A DNA stretch of 64,000 nucleotides, taken from an uncultured Alphaproteobacteria bacterium. GTDB taxonomy: Bacteria > Pseudomonadota > Alphaproteobacteria > HIMB59. Under the pieces are notes generated by a model. That model did not search any database and had not been told where the DNA came from. It worked only from the letters and a program-made list of their open reading frames with translations. The stretch covers positions 83,817 through 147,816 of the forward strand of contig CACDXE010000003.1 of the NCBI GenBank assembly GCA_902556735.1, given 5' to 3'. Positions 1 to 50,417 of this stretch are shown piece after piece; positions within the stretch are counted from its first letter, which is position 1; the number at the start of each line of letters is the position of its first letter. Both the position numbers and the translations under genes were made by a program.

Positions 1-975
1 ATAGTGATTAATATTAATAGATTTGAAGTCTAATTTTTTCTTATATTGCAGAAGTTTATTGGATTTGTAAACATTAACGTAATTTTTCGAAAAATTAAAA
101 GAATTTATAATTTCACTATATTTATCCAAGTCAGAGCTACAATCTAAAATAACATCTAATTTAGAAAAGTTAGCTAACTTAATAGCGTCCTTAATATTAT
201 AAATATTAGCATTCATTTCTAGATCATCAGATATGAGTAAACCTTTGAACCCAATTTTTTTTCTAATGATATTATCAATAATATAATTTGAAAAAGTGGC
301 GATGTTAGTTTTATCCCACGATAGATATTTAATATGTGCAGTCATTGCCAAAGGAAGGCTATTAAAATATTTAAATAATTTGGTGTGATCCTGAAGAGAG
401 ATTTTACTCAATTTAGTTATTGGCATAGTCAAATGAGAGTCTTTATTTGTTACGCCATGTCCAGGAATGTGTTTCATTATTGGAATTAGCCCAAAATAAA
501 TTAAATTTTCTAATAATATTTTTTGCAAAATTAAATTAATATTAATGTTTGGTCCAAAAGTTCTTTTTTTAATCATTAAGATTGTATTTTTAATTGGTAA
601 ATCTAGAACAGGAACTGTGTTAACATCGAAATTTAGTTTTTTTAGATAATAAGATGTTATGAAGGATTTCAAAAAAACTAACTGCTTTGATAAAGAAGGG
701 TATCTTAAATAAATTTTATAAAGCTCAAAATTATCTAAAAAATTAAATTTTTTAAATTTTTTAAATCTATTTACAATGCCACCCTCTTGATCAATAAATA
801 TTAATGTATTTTTACTTAATGATTTAATTGATTGATTTAACTTTGATATTTGAGGAATATTACTGATATTTCTTGTAAAAATTATTACCCCAAAAGGTTT
901 TATCTTCGAAATAAAATTTTTTTCTTGTTTAGATAAAGAAATACCTTTAACGGATATAATTATTGGATAATTCAT
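1..975 (-). CDS. nagZ: beta-N-acetylhexosaminidase NagZ (GH3), 3' end runs off the window
   Basis: Not in the ORF track. Translated by hand from ATG at 975: MNYPIIISVKG...GVIIFTRNI...DQEGG...MKHIPGHG...DSH...LISDDLEMNA. No stop in frame over 1-237, where I checked every codon. Confidence 0.9.
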   Translation of the reverse strand, partial: MNYPIIISVKGISLSKQEKNFISKIKPFGVIIFTRNISNIPQISKLNQSIKSLSKNTLIFIDQEGGIVNRFKKFKKFNFLDNFELYKIYLRYPSLSKQLVFLKSFITSYYLKKLNFDVNTVPVLDLPIKNTILMIKKRTFGPNININLILQKILLENLIYFGLIPIMKHIPGHGVTNKDSHLTMPITKLSKISLQDHTKLFKYFNSLPLAMTAHIKYLSWDKTNIATFSNYIIDNIIRKKIGFKGLLISDDLEMNANIYNIKDAIKLANFSKLDVILDCSSDLDKYSEIINSFNFSKNYVNVYKSNKLLQYKKKLDFKSININHY

Positions 976-1118
976 TTTATAAAATCAAATTCATCAGCAG
1001 TAATAGTTATAAAATTATCAAAAAAAATATACTTCAAGTAATTATCAAAAAACAGATAAGAAAATAATAAAATCAGTATTAAAAAAAAAATAATTATTAC
1101 TATTTTTAGATTTTTCAC
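972..1118 (-). CDS. 48-aa single-pass membrane protein, candidate minimal FtsN lacking the SPOR domain
   Basis: GTG 1118 to TGA 972 encodes MKNLKIVIIIFFLILILLFSYLFFDNYLKYIFFDNFITITADEFDFIK. It overlaps the argS stop (GTGA) and the nagZ start (ATGA) by 4 nt each. Confidence 0.65.
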   Translation of the reverse strand: MKNLKIVIIIFFLILILLFSYLFFDNYLKYIFFDNFITITADEFDFIK

Positions 1119-2764
1119 ATTTGTAATTTAGGCTGAATGCCTAAAATTTTTAATCCTTCGTCTAATACATTTTGATAATTATGTAATAACTTAATTAGAT
1201 TAGAGGAAATATTATTCTCATTATCTAAAAATTTTACTGATGGTTTATTTTTTGAAGAGGACCATAATGTATGGAAATATGACGACAAACTCTCTAAGTA
1301 GTGTGCTATTAAATGAACTTCTTTTTTTAAATATGCAGATTTTACTACATTATCCCACTCCAATAGTTTTTTATATAAGTTTTTTAATTCTGAAGTAACT
1401 ATAATGGGTGTATCAACAACTTTATTTACTTTATTTAAAATGGATTGTGTTCGTGCATAAGAATACTGAATATAATAAATAGGATTTTCCTTATTCTCTC
1501 TCTTAATTAAATCTATGTCTAAATCCATGTGAGTATCATTTTTTCTGTAAGACATAAAATATCTAAAATTATCAATTCCTATTTCATCTATTAAATTTTT
1601 AAGTTCAAAAATGTTACCCTCTCTTTTTGATAGTTTTTGTATTTTATTATCTCGTTTTAAATTGACAATTTGACAAAAAACAACTGAAAAATCAATTTTT
1701 GGGTGTAAAGAAGTTATCGCTGATGACAATCTTTTGAGATATCCTAAATGATCAGCGCCCCATATATTTATTAGTTTATTAAATCCTCTTTGAAATTTAT
1801 CTTCATGATAAGCAATATCATTTGCAAAATAAGTGGGAGTGCCATCATTTTTAGTTAATGCTCTATCTTCATCATCTTCAAAAAGAGTTGATTTAAATAT
1901 AGTTAGCTGATTATCCTTTAAAGTGCCCGTAAAATCCTTAGGGGCATTTAATTGACCTTCGTATGTTAGATTTTTTTGCTTGAATTTTTCAAGAATTAAT
2001 GGGAGATGACCCTTGTCCATAATGGTTGTTTCATATGAAATTTGATCGAATTTAATACCTGCTGTGCCAAGTGTTTGAAGCGTCTGACTGACAAGATTTT
2101 CTATAGCATAATTTACTATATTGATTTTCTCATCGAAACTTAGCTTATTATCAAATAATGGTTTAAATTTTTCGTAACAGTTCTTTGCTATATCATTAAT
2201 GTAATCACCTTTGTAAAATTGTTTTTCATTAAGATTTAGATTATTTGTCTGTGAAATAGAATAAAGTATTGAAGATAGAAATTCATTAATTTGATTACCT
2301 GTGTTATTTACATAATATTCACGAGTTACAGGATGTCCAAAATACTCAAATAAATTAGATAAAATATCTCCAACAACTGCACCTCTTCCATGTGCTAGGT
2401 GTAATGGACCTGTTGGATTTGCAGATACAAATTCAATATTTACCTTTTCATTTTCTTTAAATTCTTTTTCGTTATTGAATAATTGAGGATTAAAACTTTC
2501 ATCCTTAAGAAAAAAATTTATAAAGCCAGGTCCAGCAATTTGTACTTTTTCAAAATTATTTAAATTAATAGCCTTTAAAATAATGTCTGCTAATTGATTT
2601 GGATTTTTTCCAAATATTTTTGCAAATTTTAGAGCAGCATTAGTTGTAAAATCTCCTTTTTTGTCAAAAAGTGTTTCAACTTCAACATCTTCAAAATTAA
2701 TACTAACGTTCTTATCAATTTTAATTAATATTTCAAAAAGAGATTTTTTTAATTTATGTAACAT
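1115..2764 (-). CDS. argS: arginine--tRNA ligase
   Basis: EFVSANPTGPLHLAHGR (HIGH motif), KLSKREG (KMSKS-like), YYIQYSYAR. Confidence 0.97.
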   Translation of the reverse strand: MLHKLKKSLFEILIKIDKNVSINFEDVEVETLFDKKGDFTTNAALKFAKIFGKNPNQLADIILKAINLNNFEKVQIAGPGFINFFLKDESFNPQLFNNEKEFKENEKVNIEFVSANPTGPLHLAHGRGAVVGDILSNLFEYFGHPVTREYYVNNTGNQINEFLSSILYSISQTNNLNLNEKQFYKGDYINDIAKNCYEKFKPLFDNKLSFDEKINIVNYAIENLVSQTLQTLGTAGIKFDQISYETTIMDKGHLPLILEKFKQKNLTYEGQLNAPKDFTGTLKDNQLTIFKSTLFEDDEDRALTKNDGTPTYFANDIAYHEDKFQRGFNKLINIWGADHLGYLKRLSSAITSLHPKIDFSVVFCQIVNLKRDNKIQKLSKREGNIFELKNLIDEIGIDNFRYFMSYRKNDTHMDLDIDLIKRENKENPIYYIQYSYARTQSILNKVNKVVDTPIIVTSELKNLYKKLLEWDNVVKSAYLKKEVHLIAHYLESLSSYFHTLWSSSKNKPSVKFLDNENNISSNLIKLLHNYQNVLDEGLKILGIQPKLQM

Positions 2765-3863
2765 ATTTTTTATAGAAATTTATAGCATACTGATCTGTCA
2801 TACCACATACATAATCGACTATTATTTGTTGCTTATCTGTATCATATTGTAATTTTTCTTTCCATTTAGATGGAAGCATAGAGGTATCATTATTTAATAA
2901 TTTAATTATAGATACTAAAATTTTTTCAGCTTGCGTTCTATTTTTATATACAAAATCAGATGTGTAAAAAAATTCGAATAGAAAATTTTTAAGAAATTTT
3001 ACTTTATCTAATACTGGAGGACTAAACTTAACCAAAAAATTTGTGTTTATTATAACATCTTCAATCGATCGTATTTGTGAATTATTAGAAAGAGTATTTT
3101 CAGTTTCGTTAAGAAGATCCAAAATTAAGTAGTTCATAATGGATCTTGAAAAGTAATTTCTTGCAATACTTTTATCTAAGTTTGCAATGTATGAAAAATC
3201 TATAAAATTAAATTGTTCTTTATTTTCAGCTAAACTTGATATTGTCAGAATACCTGATCTTAAAGCATCATCGAAATCATGAGCTATGTAAGCTATATCA
3301 TCAGACAACGATGCGATTTGAGCCTCTAATGAGGGATTCTTATTTAAATCAAATTTAAAATTTTTTGATAAGTCGTAGTTTCTATTTGTTTCTTGTATTT
3401 TTCCATTATGCTTTATTAAACCATCTATTGTTTCCCAAGTTAAATTTAAACCATCAAAATTTATATATCTCTTTTCTAATAATGTAATTTGTCTAAAAGA
3501 TTGATAATTATGGTTAAAATTTGCATCTAATTCTTGAGTAATTATTTCTTCGCCCACATGACCAAAAGGACTATGACCTAAATCATGAGATAGTGCTATA
3601 CATTCAGTGAGATCTTCATTTAAAGACAATTTTCTACTTATAGATCTTGCTATTTGAGATACCTCAAGAGTATGTGTTAGTCTATTTCTATAATAATCAC
3701 CTTTTTCAAACATAAATACTTGTGTTTTATCTTTTAGTTTTCTAAAGGCTGTTGAATGATAAATTCTGTCTCTATCTCTTTCGTAAAGTGATCGATGATC
3801 ATTTATTTCATCGTAAAGTCTTCCTTTTGAATTTTCTGGTAAAGCTGATAAATTACTGAACAT
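2754..3863 (-). CDS. dgt: deoxyguanosinetriphosphate triphosphohydrolase (HD domain)
   Basis: RDRDRIYHSTAFRKLKDKTQVF, RNRLTHTLEV, HDLGHSPFGH, DDIAY. Likely start is ATG 3863 (MFSNLS); the ORF-track extension to 3908 overlaps erpA. Confidence 0.93.
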   Translation of the reverse strand: MFSNLSALPENSKGRLYDEINDHRSLYERDRDRIYHSTAFRKLKDKTQVFMFEKGDYYRNRLTHTLEVSQIARSISRKLSLNEDLTECIALSHDLGHSPFGHVGEEIITQELDANFNHNYQSFRQITLLEKRYINFDGLNLTWETIDGLIKHNGKIQETNRNYDLSKNFKFDLNKNPSLEAQIASLSDDIAYIAHDFDDALRSGILTISSLAENKEQFNFIDFSYIANLDKSIARNYFSRSIMNYLILDLLNETENTLSNNSQIRSIEDVIINTNFLVKFSPPVLDKVKFLKNFLFEFFYTSDFVYKNRTQAEKILVSIIKLLNNDTSMLPSKWKEKLQYDTDKQQIIVDYVCGMTDQYAINFYKKYVT

Positions 3864-4190
3864 ATGGGAAGTATTAATATAACAGATAAAGCTATAAATA
3901 AAATTCAAGAAGTTCTAAAAGATCAAAATATGAAATATTTTAGAATCAGAGTCAAAGGTGGTGGATGTTCTGGATTCCAGTACGTATTTAAAAGTGAAAA
4001 TGTAATTAATGAAACCAAAGATCATGTATTTAATTTTAAAGATTTACAAATTTTGATCGATAAAAATTCTATGACTTTCATAAATGAGTCTGAATTAGAT
4101 TATAAAGATGAATTGATAGGCTCTAGTTTCTCTATTTCAAATCCTAATGCTAAAAATTCTTGTGGCTGTGGCACATCATTTAGCGTTTAA
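3864..4190 (+). CDS. erpA: iron-sulfur cluster insertion protein ErpA (HesB/IscA family)
   Basis: GGGCSGFQY and NPNAKNSCGCGTSF motifs. Confidence 0.93.
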   Translation: MGSINITDKAINKIQEVLKDQNMKYFRIRVKGGGCSGFQYVFKSENVINETKDHVFNFKDLQILIDKNSMTFINESELDYKDELIGSSFSISNPNAKNSCGCGTSFSV

Positions 4191-4192
4191 TT

Positions 4193-4960
4193 GTGAAAAT
4201 AATTAGTTGGAATGTAAATTCTTTAAGAGCTCGAGAACCACTTATAGAAAAAATAATAAAAACAGAAGCTCCAGATATATTTTGCTTACAAGAACTGAAG
4301 ATATTAGATAAAGAATACGTAGAAAATTTTTTTAATCAATTTTCATTGAAAACAGTGGCTGAAACTCAAAAAAGCTATAATGGGGTAAGTGTTTCTTGTA
4401 AAAGTGAGATTGTATTAAATGAAAATCCCTTAAAAAGGTTAAATATGACACAAGCAAGAAACAATACAGTTATTATAAAAGATAAAAATTTAGCAATCCT
4501 CAATTGTTATTTCCCTAATGGAAATCCTATAGATACAGACAAATTTACAAATAAACTTGAATGGATGAAATTACTTTATAGAGAAATAGAAATACTTAAA
4601 AAAGAACATGAAGTTTTATTAATGGGAGATTTTAATGTTATTCCAGATGATGAAGATGCTCATGATATTAAAAAATATAAAAATGATGCTCTAGCACAAC
4701 CTGAGTCTAGAAAAGAATTTTATAAATTAATAAATCTAGATCTAATTGATGTGTTTAAGACTACTCCAAAAAAACAAAGTTATACTTTTTTTGACTACAA
4801 AACTTACAAATTTGGAAAAGAAGAAGGAATAAGAATAGACTTTTTTCTTTTATCTCCATTTTTGAAAAGTAAAATAATGAAACTAAAAGTATTAAAAGAA
4901 TACCGTGATATGGATAGACCCTCTGATCATTGCCCTATTCTTATAGATTTAAATATCTGA
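4193..4960 (+). CDS. xthA: exodeoxyribonuclease III
   Basis: SWNVNS, CLQELK, YFPNG, GDFNV, RIDFFL, SDHCP. Confidence 0.95.
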   Translation: MKIISWNVNSLRAREPLIEKIIKTEAPDIFCLQELKILDKEYVENFFNQFSLKTVAETQKSYNGVSVSCKSEIVLNENPLKRLNMTQARNNTVIIKDKNLAILNCYFPNGNPIDTDKFTNKLEWMKLLYREIEILKKEHEVLLMGDFNVIPDDEDAHDIKKYKNDALAQPESRKEFYKLINLDLIDVFKTTPKKQSYTFFDYKTYKFGKEEGIRIDFFLLSPFLKSKIMKLKVLKEYRDMDRPSDHCPILIDLNI

Positions 4961-6661
4961 ATAAGTCTTTTTTTCTAATTTACCACCAGGGTGTGTAACT
5001 GCCCCTAGGTTTGCAGGTCCAACAGTTTTCATATATTTCCATAAAGTACCTGACATAAACTCTGGTTCTTTATTAACCCATTTAATTTTTCTATCGGATA
5101 ACGTTTTTTCGTCTACATTCAAATTTAGTATATTTTTCTCTGCATCAATTTCTATTTCATCACCATCTTCAACTAACGCTATAGGCCCACAATCATAAGC
5201 CTCTGGGCCTACATGGCCGATACAAAAACCTCGTGTACCTCCAGAGAACCTTCCGTCAGTAATTAAAGCTACCTCTTCGCCAAGATCTTGTCCATAAAGG
5301 GCACTAGTGGTAGATAGCATTTCTCTCATACCTGGTCCTCCTTTTGGGCCCTCGTATCTTATAATCACAACATGACCAGGTTTAATTTTACCATTTAAGA
5401 CAGCGTCTAGAGCATGTTCTTCTCTATCAAAGCAAATTGCCTTTCCTTTGAACTGTAATTTTTTAAGTCCAGCTATTTTTACAATCGCACCATCAGGAGC
5501 AAGTGAACCTTTCAAACCTACCACGCCACCTGTTTTAGTAATTGGGCTACTGACAGGATAAACAACATCTTGATTTTTTGGTAACTCCACATCTTTTACA
5601 TTTTCAGCTAACGTTTTTCCAGTAACAGTCATGCATGATCCATCAATCAACCCGCCATCAATGAGTGCTTTAATTAGAACAGGAACGCCACCAACTTCAT
5701 ATAAATCTTTAGCTACATACTTCCCCCCCGGGGCTAAATTACCTATATAAGGTGTTGATTGGAAAATATTACAGACATCTTCCAAAGTAAATTCAATACC
5801 AGCTTCATGAGCCATAGCAGGTAGATGTAAACCTGCGTTGGTTGATCCACCTGATGCTGAAACAACCACAGCCGCATTTATTAGTGATTGTTTTGTAACA
5901 ATATCCCTAGGTCTCAAGTTTTTTTCAATTAATTCCATAACTACTTTTCCACTTTCATAAGCATATTTATCTCTACTTTCATAAGGAGCTGGTGTCATAG
6001 CAGAACCTGGAAGAGCTAAACCAATAGTCTCTGAAACGCATGCCATGGTATTTGCGGTAAACTGTCCGCCACAGGATCCAGCAGATGGACAGGCAACACA
6101 CTCAATGTCATGGAGTTCTTGGTCTGAAATCTTTCCTGTTGAATGTTTTCCAACAGCTTCAAAAACATCTACTATTGTTACGTCCTTATCCTTATAAACA
6201 CCTGGTAATATAGATCCACCGTACATAAATACAGATGGCACATTAAGTCTTAGCATTGCCATCATTAAACCTGGCAAAGATTTATCACACCCAGCTAAAC
6301 CAACTAAGGCATCATAACAGTGCCCTCTTACAGAAAGTTCAGTTGAGTCAGCTATAATCTCCCTACTAGTTAAAGAAGATTTCATTCCCTCATGACCCAT
6401 AGCAATACCATCAGTAACAGTAATCGTGGTAAATTCTCTTGGTGTACCTTTTGCATCCCACACACCTTTTTTGGCTGATTGAGCTTGGCGAGAAAGTGAA
6501 ATATTGCAAGGGGCAGACTCATTCCATGTGGTTACTACACCAACAAAAGGTTGTTTAATCTGTTCTTCAGTAATTCCCATAGCATAATAAAAAGCTCTAT
6601 GTGGTGCACTTTTAGGACCTACAGAAACATGTCTACTTGGTAATTTGCTTTTATCAACCAT
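4949..6661 (-). CDS. ilvD: dihydroxy-acid dehydratase
   Basis: PCN, DGIAMGHEGM, GCDKSLPG, CGGQFTANTM, GGSTN, GPKGGPGMREM, TDGRFSGG. Confidence 0.97.
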   Translation of the reverse strand: MVDKSKLPSRHVSVGPKSAPHRAFYYAMGITEEQIKQPFVGVVTTWNESAPCNISLSRQAQSAKKGVWDAKGTPREFTTITVTDGIAMGHEGMKSSLTSREIIADSTELSVRGHCYDALVGLAGCDKSLPGLMMAMLRLNVPSVFMYGGSILPGVYKDKDVTIVDVFEAVGKHSTGKISDQELHDIECVACPSAGSCGGQFTANTMACVSETIGLALPGSAMTPAPYESRDKYAYESGKVVMELIEKNLRPRDIVTKQSLINAAVVVSASGGSTNAGLHLPAMAHEAGIEFTLEDVCNIFQSTPYIGNLAPGGKYVAKDLYEVGGVPVLIKALIDGGLIDGSCMTVTGKTLAENVKDVELPKNQDVVYPVSSPITKTGGVVGLKGSLAPDGAIVKIAGLKKLQFKGKAICFDREEHALDAVLNGKIKPGHVVIIRYEGPKGGPGMREMLSTTSALYGQDLGEEVALITDGRFSGGTRGFCIGHVGPEAYDCGPIALVEDGDEIEIDAEKNILNLNVDEKTLSDRKIKWVNKEPEFMSGTLWKYMKTVGPANLGAVTHPGGKLEKKTYSDI

Positions 6662-49355: not shown

Positions 49356-50417
49356 ATGAGAATAATACTTATTACTTTTATTATAACAGTCAATTTATCA
49401 CATCCATTATTAGCAAAAATAGCCAGTGTAATAGGAAATCCAATAACACAAGAAATATATTTTGAAGTTAATAAAGATACAAAAAATTATCCTGCATCTT
49501 TAACTAAAATAATGACACTTTACATTATATTCGATGAATTAAGATTAAAAAATATTCATTTAAGTGATCATGTTTATTTCTCAAAATATGCTACATATCA
49601 ACAACCATCTAAATTAGGAATAAAAGAAAAAGATTTTATTACTGTTAATGAACTAATTGATTCATTAATAGTCAAGTCTGCTAATGATGCAGCAGTTGCG
49701 ATAGCTGAAAAAATATCAGGTAGTGAAAAAAAATTTGTTTTAAAGATGAATAAATATGCAAAAAAATTAAATTTATTGAATACAAATTTTGCAAATCCTC
49801 ATGGTCTTCCAAATAGAGCTAACTTATCAACAGCAAATGATATTTTTAAACTTAGCTCAAAAATAATTGTTGATTTTCCAGAGCATTTACATCGATTTAA
49901 AAAAACAAAAGTTAAAATTAAAGGAAAAAGTTACAAGACTCATAATACATTATTAAAATATGATCACTACATAGGTTTAAAAACTGGATATACGAGAAAA
50001 TCTGGTTTCCAAATATCACTTCTATCAATTAATAATGATGAGTATTTATTGGGTATATACTTTGGAGGAAATTCTGCTAAAGAAAGAAATAATAAAATTA
50101 ATTTTCTTATGAATAAATATAGAAATAAAGATGCTACTATGAGTGAAAAAACAAAAAAATTAATAGTCAAAAATCAAAAAAAAAGTACAAGTATTTATAC
50201 AATACAGACATCCTCTTTCAAAAAGATCAGTAAATCAAAAATGCATATTACTTTACTGAAAAATAAAATAAAAATATTAAGAAGTTTTGAACATAAAATA
50301 AAGAAAAATGGTAGATATTTTATAACTTATATAAATGTTGATGATCATCTAACAGCAAAAAACTTATGTAATGAGATTAAATTAAATAAACTAGACTGTT
50401 TGATTAAAGCTAGTTAA
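49356..50417 (+). CDS. D-alanyl-D-alanine carboxypeptidase (S11) with C-terminal SPOR-like domain
   Basis: YPASLTK (SxxK), SAND, NPHGL, KTG; C-terminal YTIQ...C...C. Confidence 0.88.
   Translation: MRIILITFIITVNLSHPLLAKIASVIGNPITQEIYFEVNKDTKNYPASLTKIMTLYIIFDELRLKNIHLSDHVYFSKYATYQQPSKLGIKEKDFITVNELIDSLIVKSANDAAVAIAEKISGSEKKFVLKMNKYAKKLNLLNTNFANPHGLPNRANLSTANDIFKLSSKIIVDFPEHLHRFKKTKVKIKGKSYKTHNTLLKYDHYIGLKTGYTRKSGFQISLLSINNDEYLLGIYFGGNSAKERNNKINFLMNKYRNKDATMSEKTKKLIVKNQKKSTSIYTIQTSSFKKISKSKMHITLLKNKIKILRSFEHKIKKNGRYFITYINVDDHLTAKNLCNEIKLNKLDCLIKAS

Follow-up and report, generated by a model that had tools for sequence, protein, structure and literature searches.

In the window, by which we mean the whole 64,000-nt stretch of DNA analysed here, the genes argS and nagZ of a HIMB59 bacterium seem to be separated by a small gap that lies in the slot of ftsN. 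This raises the question of whether the gap holds a gene, and whether such a gene could be what is left of FtsN. HIMB59 corresponds to the AEGEAN-169 lineage (according to the accessible part of PMC10308909), and the source genome of the window is an assembly of 1.16 Mb that is 76% complete. The first-pass annotation had described an open frame filling the gap exactly, with 4-nt overlaps at each end. The sequence bears this out, the GTG start sharing bases with the argS stop (ATGTGA) and the TGA stop with the nagZ start ATG (AAATGA). The features of the locus are given in Table 1; the nagZ product has 338 aa, and the next gene is scpA.

Table 1. Features of the argS-nagZ locus, in window coordinates
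Feature	Coordinates	Strand	Remarks
48-aa single-pass membrane protein gene, ftsN slot	972..1118	-	Runs from GTG to TGA, with a 4-nt overlap at each end
Predicted transmembrane (TM) helix, residues 6-24, 19 uncharged	1047..1103	-	Sequence and alignment
Aromatic juxtamembrane segment, residues 25-35, conserved, genus-specific	1014..1046	-	Alignment
Last 13 residues (36-48), aligning to the first strand of the alphaproteobacterial FtsN periplasmic motif	975..1013	-	
argS, arginine-tRNA ligase, upstream neighbour	1115..2764	-	Pfam
nagZ, GH3 beta-N-acetylhexosaminidase, downstream neighbour; leaves the window	1..975	-	Pfam
dgt-like HD phosphohydrolase, heading the conserved cluster	2754..3908	-	Pfam

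A conserved small gene between argS and nagZ

The encoded peptide has the layout ascribed to it earlier, namely a basic N-terminus (K2/K5), one TM segment of 19 uncharged residues (6-24) and a short tail of 24 residues with the terminus ITITADEFDFIK. Its cytoplasmic end consists of the 5 residues before the predicted TM helix. From the two lysines and the acidic tail we infer an N-in/C-out topology, and residues 25-35 likely form an amphipathic helix. Such a frame had been judged unlikely to arise by chance, and in 100,000 base shuffles a frame was open at the fixed position in 1.0%.

An argS match was obtained in 50 genomes of the genus, of which 45 loci were examined and 41 hold the full argS-nagZ interval. 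The frame was intact in all 41, at 47-51 aa, and also in two more genomes (L013 and L015), giving a total of 43/43. As for the remaining four of the 45 loci, two are open up to the contig end, one is open over the 22 codons present and one stops at the argS stop. ArgS identity across these same-genus genomes ranges from 58 to 98%. The other two frames on the same strand carry 3-11 stops in all 41 sequences, and among the three reverse frames just one is open, in a single sequence. For 28 distinct indel-free alleles the dN/dS of the frame was 0.17, with 18, 7 and 31 variable columns at the three codon positions; its tail (0.13) and TM segment (0.19) compare with values of 0.10 for ArgS and 0.12 for NagZ (28 closest genomes). 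Residues D42, F46 and I47 are invariant in the 41 genus peptides. The last codons show scant synonymous change (GAT in 41/41, TTT in 40/41), so that initiation of nagZ may add to their conservation. Conservation of the frame in relatives and a dN/dS below 1, both put forward beforehand, were therefore observed, and the frame is a real coding gene conserved under purifying selection.

In one locus (L056, genome G112) the NagZ frame stops at 264 aa, argS has internal stops and the small frame is intact; the breaks in NagZ and argS are likely assembly errors. Two longer database relatives of the peptide (P0131 and P0132, of 129 and 134 aa) were likewise rejected as assembly errors: each occurs only once, on a short contig, and its frame continues past the stop into an apparent out-of-frame nagZ.

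The suggestion that gene callers miss this frame proved mostly correct. None of six genus peptides looked up in a collection of 15 billion proteins was present, and a profile search among proteins of 25-90 aa gave five clusters with 8 members in total, the neighbouring NagZ clusters being far larger (843, 401 and 217 members). A profile search of all proteins returned mostly full-length proteins and added nothing on the short forms. In a HIMB59-labelled record, to which proteins of the same-genus genome G041 are identical, argS (AFS49271.1) and nagZ (AFS49272.1) have consecutive accessions, which means that no protein is annotated between them. The 48-aa peptide matches no Pfam or NCBIfam family, and Rfam gave no match within window positions 1-5000. 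One RNA contig, from one of four runs, covers the frame and both junctions; since such libraries can contain DNA, this is not proof of transcription.

The ftsN slot in other alphaproteobacteria

At class level, among 68 loci (of 210 genomes with a match), a TM protein of 207-756 aa lies directly after argS in 61, and 55 of these 61 proteins have a SPOR-type C..C ending. L143 (TM mis-called) and L088 and L094 (Pelagibacteraceae) were dropped before these counts, and the set is also without L097, L105, L117 and L129, whose loci hold no candidate. nagZ is present in 31/37 of the longer loci, and the consensus of the slot proteins reads vPlIrAd..P.KvkPddPGGm.VPhQDKlvY.rl. Two of these proteins were tested against the Caulobacter FtsN model (NF050813) and both matched it under the cut-off. 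The statement that ftsN of Caulobacter itself lies between argS and nagZ could not be confirmed: L297 and L298, the loci that match this model best, show the order dgt-ftsN-nagZ with no argS between, and argS adjacency of ftsN is hence common, not universal. The motif of L297 is itself diverged at P..PGG.

In the sister family of the genus, a TM protein of 166-180 aa follows argS and precedes scpA in 25/25 loci examined (of 63 with argS). Pfam detects its SPOR domain in just 4/19 proteins, under the cut-off. The top Foldseek match of the slot protein is the SPOR domain of DamX (E 0.03), and in a structural model the C-terminal domain folds like SPOR, with RlpA, DamX, DedD and CwlC at ranks 2-5 (Z 5.1-7.1). 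The gene order in this family (L062-L086) is argS-ftsN-scpA, without nagZ after ftsN, and the slot protein keeps a degenerate SPOR domain with two invariant cysteines despite no AmiC having been found. With FtsN-like proteins in both the sister-family and the class-level slots, the proposal that the window gene occupies the ftsN slot without a SPOR domain stands; in 43/43 genomes the genus protein ends at 47-51 aa and a C-terminal SPOR domain is absent.

A parallel series was seen in the Pelagibacterales, where a SPOR-less TM gene fills the argS-nagZ slot in 45/45 loci examined (of 67 with a match). Its product has 85-94 aa in 37 loci of the Pelagibacteraceae (L163-L192, L201-L207) and 59-69 aa in 8 loci of the sister family of the Pelagibacteraceae (L193-L200), the 48-aa peptide being the shortest of the slot series. 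The 59-69 aa form holds the whole alphaproteobacterial FtsN motif, ends at or just past IY and aligns to alphaproteobacterial FtsN at 96% in hhalign; judging by sequence, it is the cleanest natural minimal FtsN found in this analysis, and both it and the 85-94 aa form are better candidates for one than the 48-aa peptide. The Pelagibacteraceae form has a strand like LPILENDT and reaches 8% in the same comparison, and 13 of 22 of these proteins meet the E. coli E-domain consensus, mostly at the terminal F.FW.LL. Gene finders call the Pelagibacterales genes as hypothetical, an example being AAZ21779.1 (labelled uncharacterised). That the losses in these families were independent rests on kinship labels, not on a tree.

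A full-length FtsN elsewhere in the genome had been named as evidence against the proposal. With the sister-family and class profiles searches of 45 and 35 genus genomes turned up no second or full-length FtsN, the weak matches being ~800-aa frames (E 0.001-0.07), a 227-aa own ORF matching the linker, and one in G015. PF05036 (SPOR) was not found in the source genome, which is 76% complete, and in this genome and the 99% complete G041 the class profile gave no SPOR match outside a DD-carboxypeptidase. A SPOR match at window positions 50136-50411 was considered as a relocated FtsN and rejected, as it is the tail of this enzyme. The gene itself, for a D-Ala-D-Ala carboxypeptidase with a C-terminal SPOR-like domain, lies at 49356-50417 (+) and occurs genus-wide although AmiC was not found.

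Direct homology of the peptide to FtsN is modest. The first-pass annotation had looked to a profile HMM for an alignment with the juxtamembrane part of FtsN, and this failed: the alphaproteobacterial FtsN HMM puts the frame at rank 22 among the 8555 ORFs of the source genome (E 8.4), with the alignment confined to the TM. hhalign of the genus peptide against the sister-family protein gave 7%, which is not significant; the best hhalign value of 68% was equalled by 8/40 tail shuffles, and an FtsL decoy reached 32%. Both MAFFT and hhalign match the tail to one and the same strand of the motif in each of the four other lineages. In a matrix pooled from these four lineages, the C-terminal 13-mer was chosen in 17/17 peptides and outscored 125/125 post-TM controls from the same genome, with 24/2000 column shuffles matching it; without the Pelagibacter set, whose register was picked partly by eye, the support falls to 6/125 controls and 167/2000 shuffles. 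A matrix from the alphaproteobacterial set only was not significant, 83/125 controls scoring equally high. The peptide is in a consistent register with the first strand P-l-I-x-A-D-x-x-P-x-K, and the alphaproteobacteria-only HMM, matrix and hhalign are not significant.

The I-x-A-D segment that the first-pass annotation ascribes to these proteins does exist in alphaproteobacterial FtsN, but it is only the first third of a conserved block of ~30 residues, of which P..PGG and QDK.VY are the best conserved. The peptide ends within this block, just ahead of the conserved P of P..PGG; the stop codon precedes the distal motif P..PGG..P.QDK.VY, which is absent, and NF050813 gives no match for the peptide. 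None of 17 genus peptides meets the E. coli E-domain consensus (WYLF)x(YFL)hxxL (as given in the accessible text of bioRxiv 10.1101/2023.05.12.540521), the C-terminal FDFIK fitting its first five positions and ending before the invariant L. The notion that the peptide retains the divisome-activating core is not supported, since it has lost the most conserved part of the motif and matches the E. coli consensus in 0/17. SPOR and the distal motif having been tested and being absent, we regard the peptide as a likely orthologous remnant and do not file it as an FtsN family member. The case for its ancestry leans above all on where the gene lies, on how the protein is built and on the parallel series.

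The divisome of the genus and a possible role of the peptide

Two genomes of the genus, G041 and G004, retain mraZ-mraW-ftsL-ftsI-murEF-mraY-murD-ftsW; G041 also retains ftsQ-ftsA-ftsZ, and an ftsB-like gene is present in both, the small divisome genes being named by position and shape. The FtsL, FtsB-like and FtsQ-like proteins match no NCBIfam model. The source assembly has no ftsW or ftsI match, an absence that its 76% completeness can explain. The FtsI proteins of the genus (482-489 aa; L236-L250) carry a 32-residue deletion in the head region in 13/14, with loss of the RG..DR motif, in an alignment made without L243 (FtsI cut) and L252 (FtsI frame not recovered). FtsL has kept the glutamate of the AEW motif in 14/14, which in our reading corresponds to E. 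coli E87; its P.R part is gone. For E. coli FtsN, the essential helix has been modelled on FtsL L86/E87 and FtsI V84, V86, Y168 and P170 (in the part available of bioRxiv 10.1101/2023.05.12.540521). A strict co-evolution of peptide truncation and FtsI head deletion was rejected: in G043 the short peptide coexists with an FtsI head that is almost complete, which means that the losses did not happen at the same time.

The source genome contains two ftsB-like genes (G000:C14:6066-6350 and G000:C1:178867-179148, at 49% and 82% to the G004 query), and two are also found in G021, G013 and G042. In FtsI, G004 (L236) shares just 74-76% identity with relatives such as G021 and G024, although the ArgS sequences of all of them match the window's at ~96% identity. 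The dcw block of G004 may possibly have been replaced or have evolved fast.

AmiC (PF01520), the amidase that generates the ligand of SPOR, was not found in the three SPOR-less families (0/9 genomes of the genus, 0/4 and 0/7 of the Pelagibacterales), nor in the sister family, which still keeps a SPOR-like domain (0/6), and it is present in 16/19 other alphaproteobacteria; in these counts related genomes are not independent of one another, and a SPOR-like end is retained in the lineages or loci of 9 genomes that lack the amidase. SPOR domains are described as binding amidase-denuded glycan (PMC7822825, accessible part).

It is highly probable that the frame is a shrunken orthologue of alphaproteobacterial FtsN, an ancestry supported by its slot, strand, predicted topology and apparent motif register and by the parallel truncations in two other families. 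The protein is probably still a divisome component; that it is still required for activation is somewhat doubtful. The best explanation, which we consider reasonably likely, is that of a shrunken FtsN orthologue that would still partner the septal wall synthase as a small protein anchored in the membrane. It would be made by translational coupling to argS and insert N-in/C-out, and its last 13 residues may dock as a strand on membrane-proximal FtsI/FtsQLB and so help to keep FtsWI active. SPOR might have been lost because, without AmiC, there would be little denuded glycan to bind, and loss of the distal motif might have taken place in a divisome in which FtsI and FtsL, too, have diverged at conserved periplasmic motifs of their own, synthase activity then being held without SPOR-based feedback. 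The short cytoplasmic end leaves little room for contact with FtsA and counts against an FtsN role. When the peptide was modelled in complex with the G004 proteins FtsI, FtsL and FtsB, the score was 0.00, which is evidence neither way. A bolder version, in which the protein is a working FtsN, the shortest found, whose 13 C-terminal residues constitute the irreducible activating element of FtsN in alphaproteobacteria, seems to us rather unlikely. If it held, the peptide and the 59-94 aa Pelagibacterales forms together would show that HIMB59 and SAR11 each evolved, independently, a division that can do without amidase and without SPOR feedback, and the essential domain in alphaproteobacteria could be mapped from the natural truncation series.

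It is also conceivable, though we think it unlikely, that the peptide derives from FtsN and has lost the activator role. The activating segment would then be the lost QDK.VY..L helix, the divisome would be FtsN-independent and the peptide a minor structural or stabilising subunit. The 59-69 aa Pelagibacterales proteins that stop just past IY and the Pelagibacteraceae proteins with a consensus match mostly at their C-terminus suggest that the distal helix is what is usually retained; the losses in FtsI (RG..DR and 32 head residues) and FtsL (P.R) fit as well, and Caulobacter has activating ftsW/ftsI alleles (reported in the available text of PMC11410940). However, the tail of the peptide is constrained as much as ArgS and NagZ, the FtsL glutamate has been kept, and QDK.VY..L is equated with the E. 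coli helix by inference.

It is quite improbable that the slot was taken over from ftsN by a small membrane protein of other descent with another job, e.g. control of the envelope or of peptidoglycan recycling together with NagZ. Profile homology to FtsN that is not significant, the lack of a Pfam or NCBIfam family and the genus-specific residues 25-35 would suit such a replacement, but the slot, strand, predicted topology and apparent motif register are those of FtsN-like proteins and truncations occurred in parallel in two other families. NagZ, moreover, is cytoplasmic, whereas the conserved tail is predicted to be periplasmic. The exact overlaps at both ends and the low synonymous change in the last codons might instead point to a function-free remnant, kept open only for translational coupling between argS and nagZ. 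This idea is largely refuted and very improbable, given a dN/dS of 0.13-0.19, a retained TM segment and near-invariant aromatic residues far from both junctions.

Comparison with known FtsN systems

Our literature search found no report of FtsN in SAR11 or HIMB59 and no study delimiting which region of FtsN is essential in alphaproteobacteria; ftsN goes unmentioned in the main text of a preprint on the SAR11 cell cycle (10.1101/2025.06.25.661606). A shrunken FtsN is known from insect symbionts, and the marine alphaproteobacterial cases are apparently new. The streamlined marine series (~170 aa with SPOR; 85-94, 59-69 and 47-51 aa without) indicates where Caulobacter FtsN might be cut. It also offers a likely identity for a hypothetical Pelagibacter gene and for an unannotated gene of the HIMB59 lineage, and bears on claims that division genes are missing from these abundant bacteria. 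That SPOR loss goes along with AmiC loss agrees with a model in which SPOR serves only the amidase feedback loop.

The FtsN-like proteins of alphaproteobacteria (Caulobacter CC2007, NF050813; Sinorhizobium RgsS) share with the peptide a single TM, a position before nagZ-scpA and mostly after argS, and a tail whose alignment register fits the first strand in their periplasmic motif. They differ in length (207-756 aa against 48 aa), and the peptide is without their linker, SPOR domain and P..PGG..QDK.VY. RgsS is essential and its SPOR domain dispensable (PMC7822825, PMC7327166, in the parts available). With E. coli FtsN, of which residues 1-119 are enough for division (as cited in the accessible text of PMC5013485), the peptide has in common a basic N-terminus, a TM and a short periplasmic tail, but it does not meet the E consensus and its cytoplasmic part has 5 residues.

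Truncated forms of FtsN are on record for Serratia symbiotica and Pantoea carbekii (PMC5013485, PMC4350177, accessible parts). As far as these sources go, the insect symbionts, Ishikawaella included, resemble our case in genome reduction, in the loss of SPOR and in the N-terminal membrane part that is left. These symbionts are gammaproteobacterial, whereas the 48-aa peptide comes from a free-living marine alphaproteobacterium, has another motif and is cut inside the conserved block. The slot genes of the Pelagibacterales share the argS-nagZ slot, the TM and the lack of SPOR and AmiC, and differ from it in their 59-94 aa, in being called by gene finders and in having kept the distal end of the motif.
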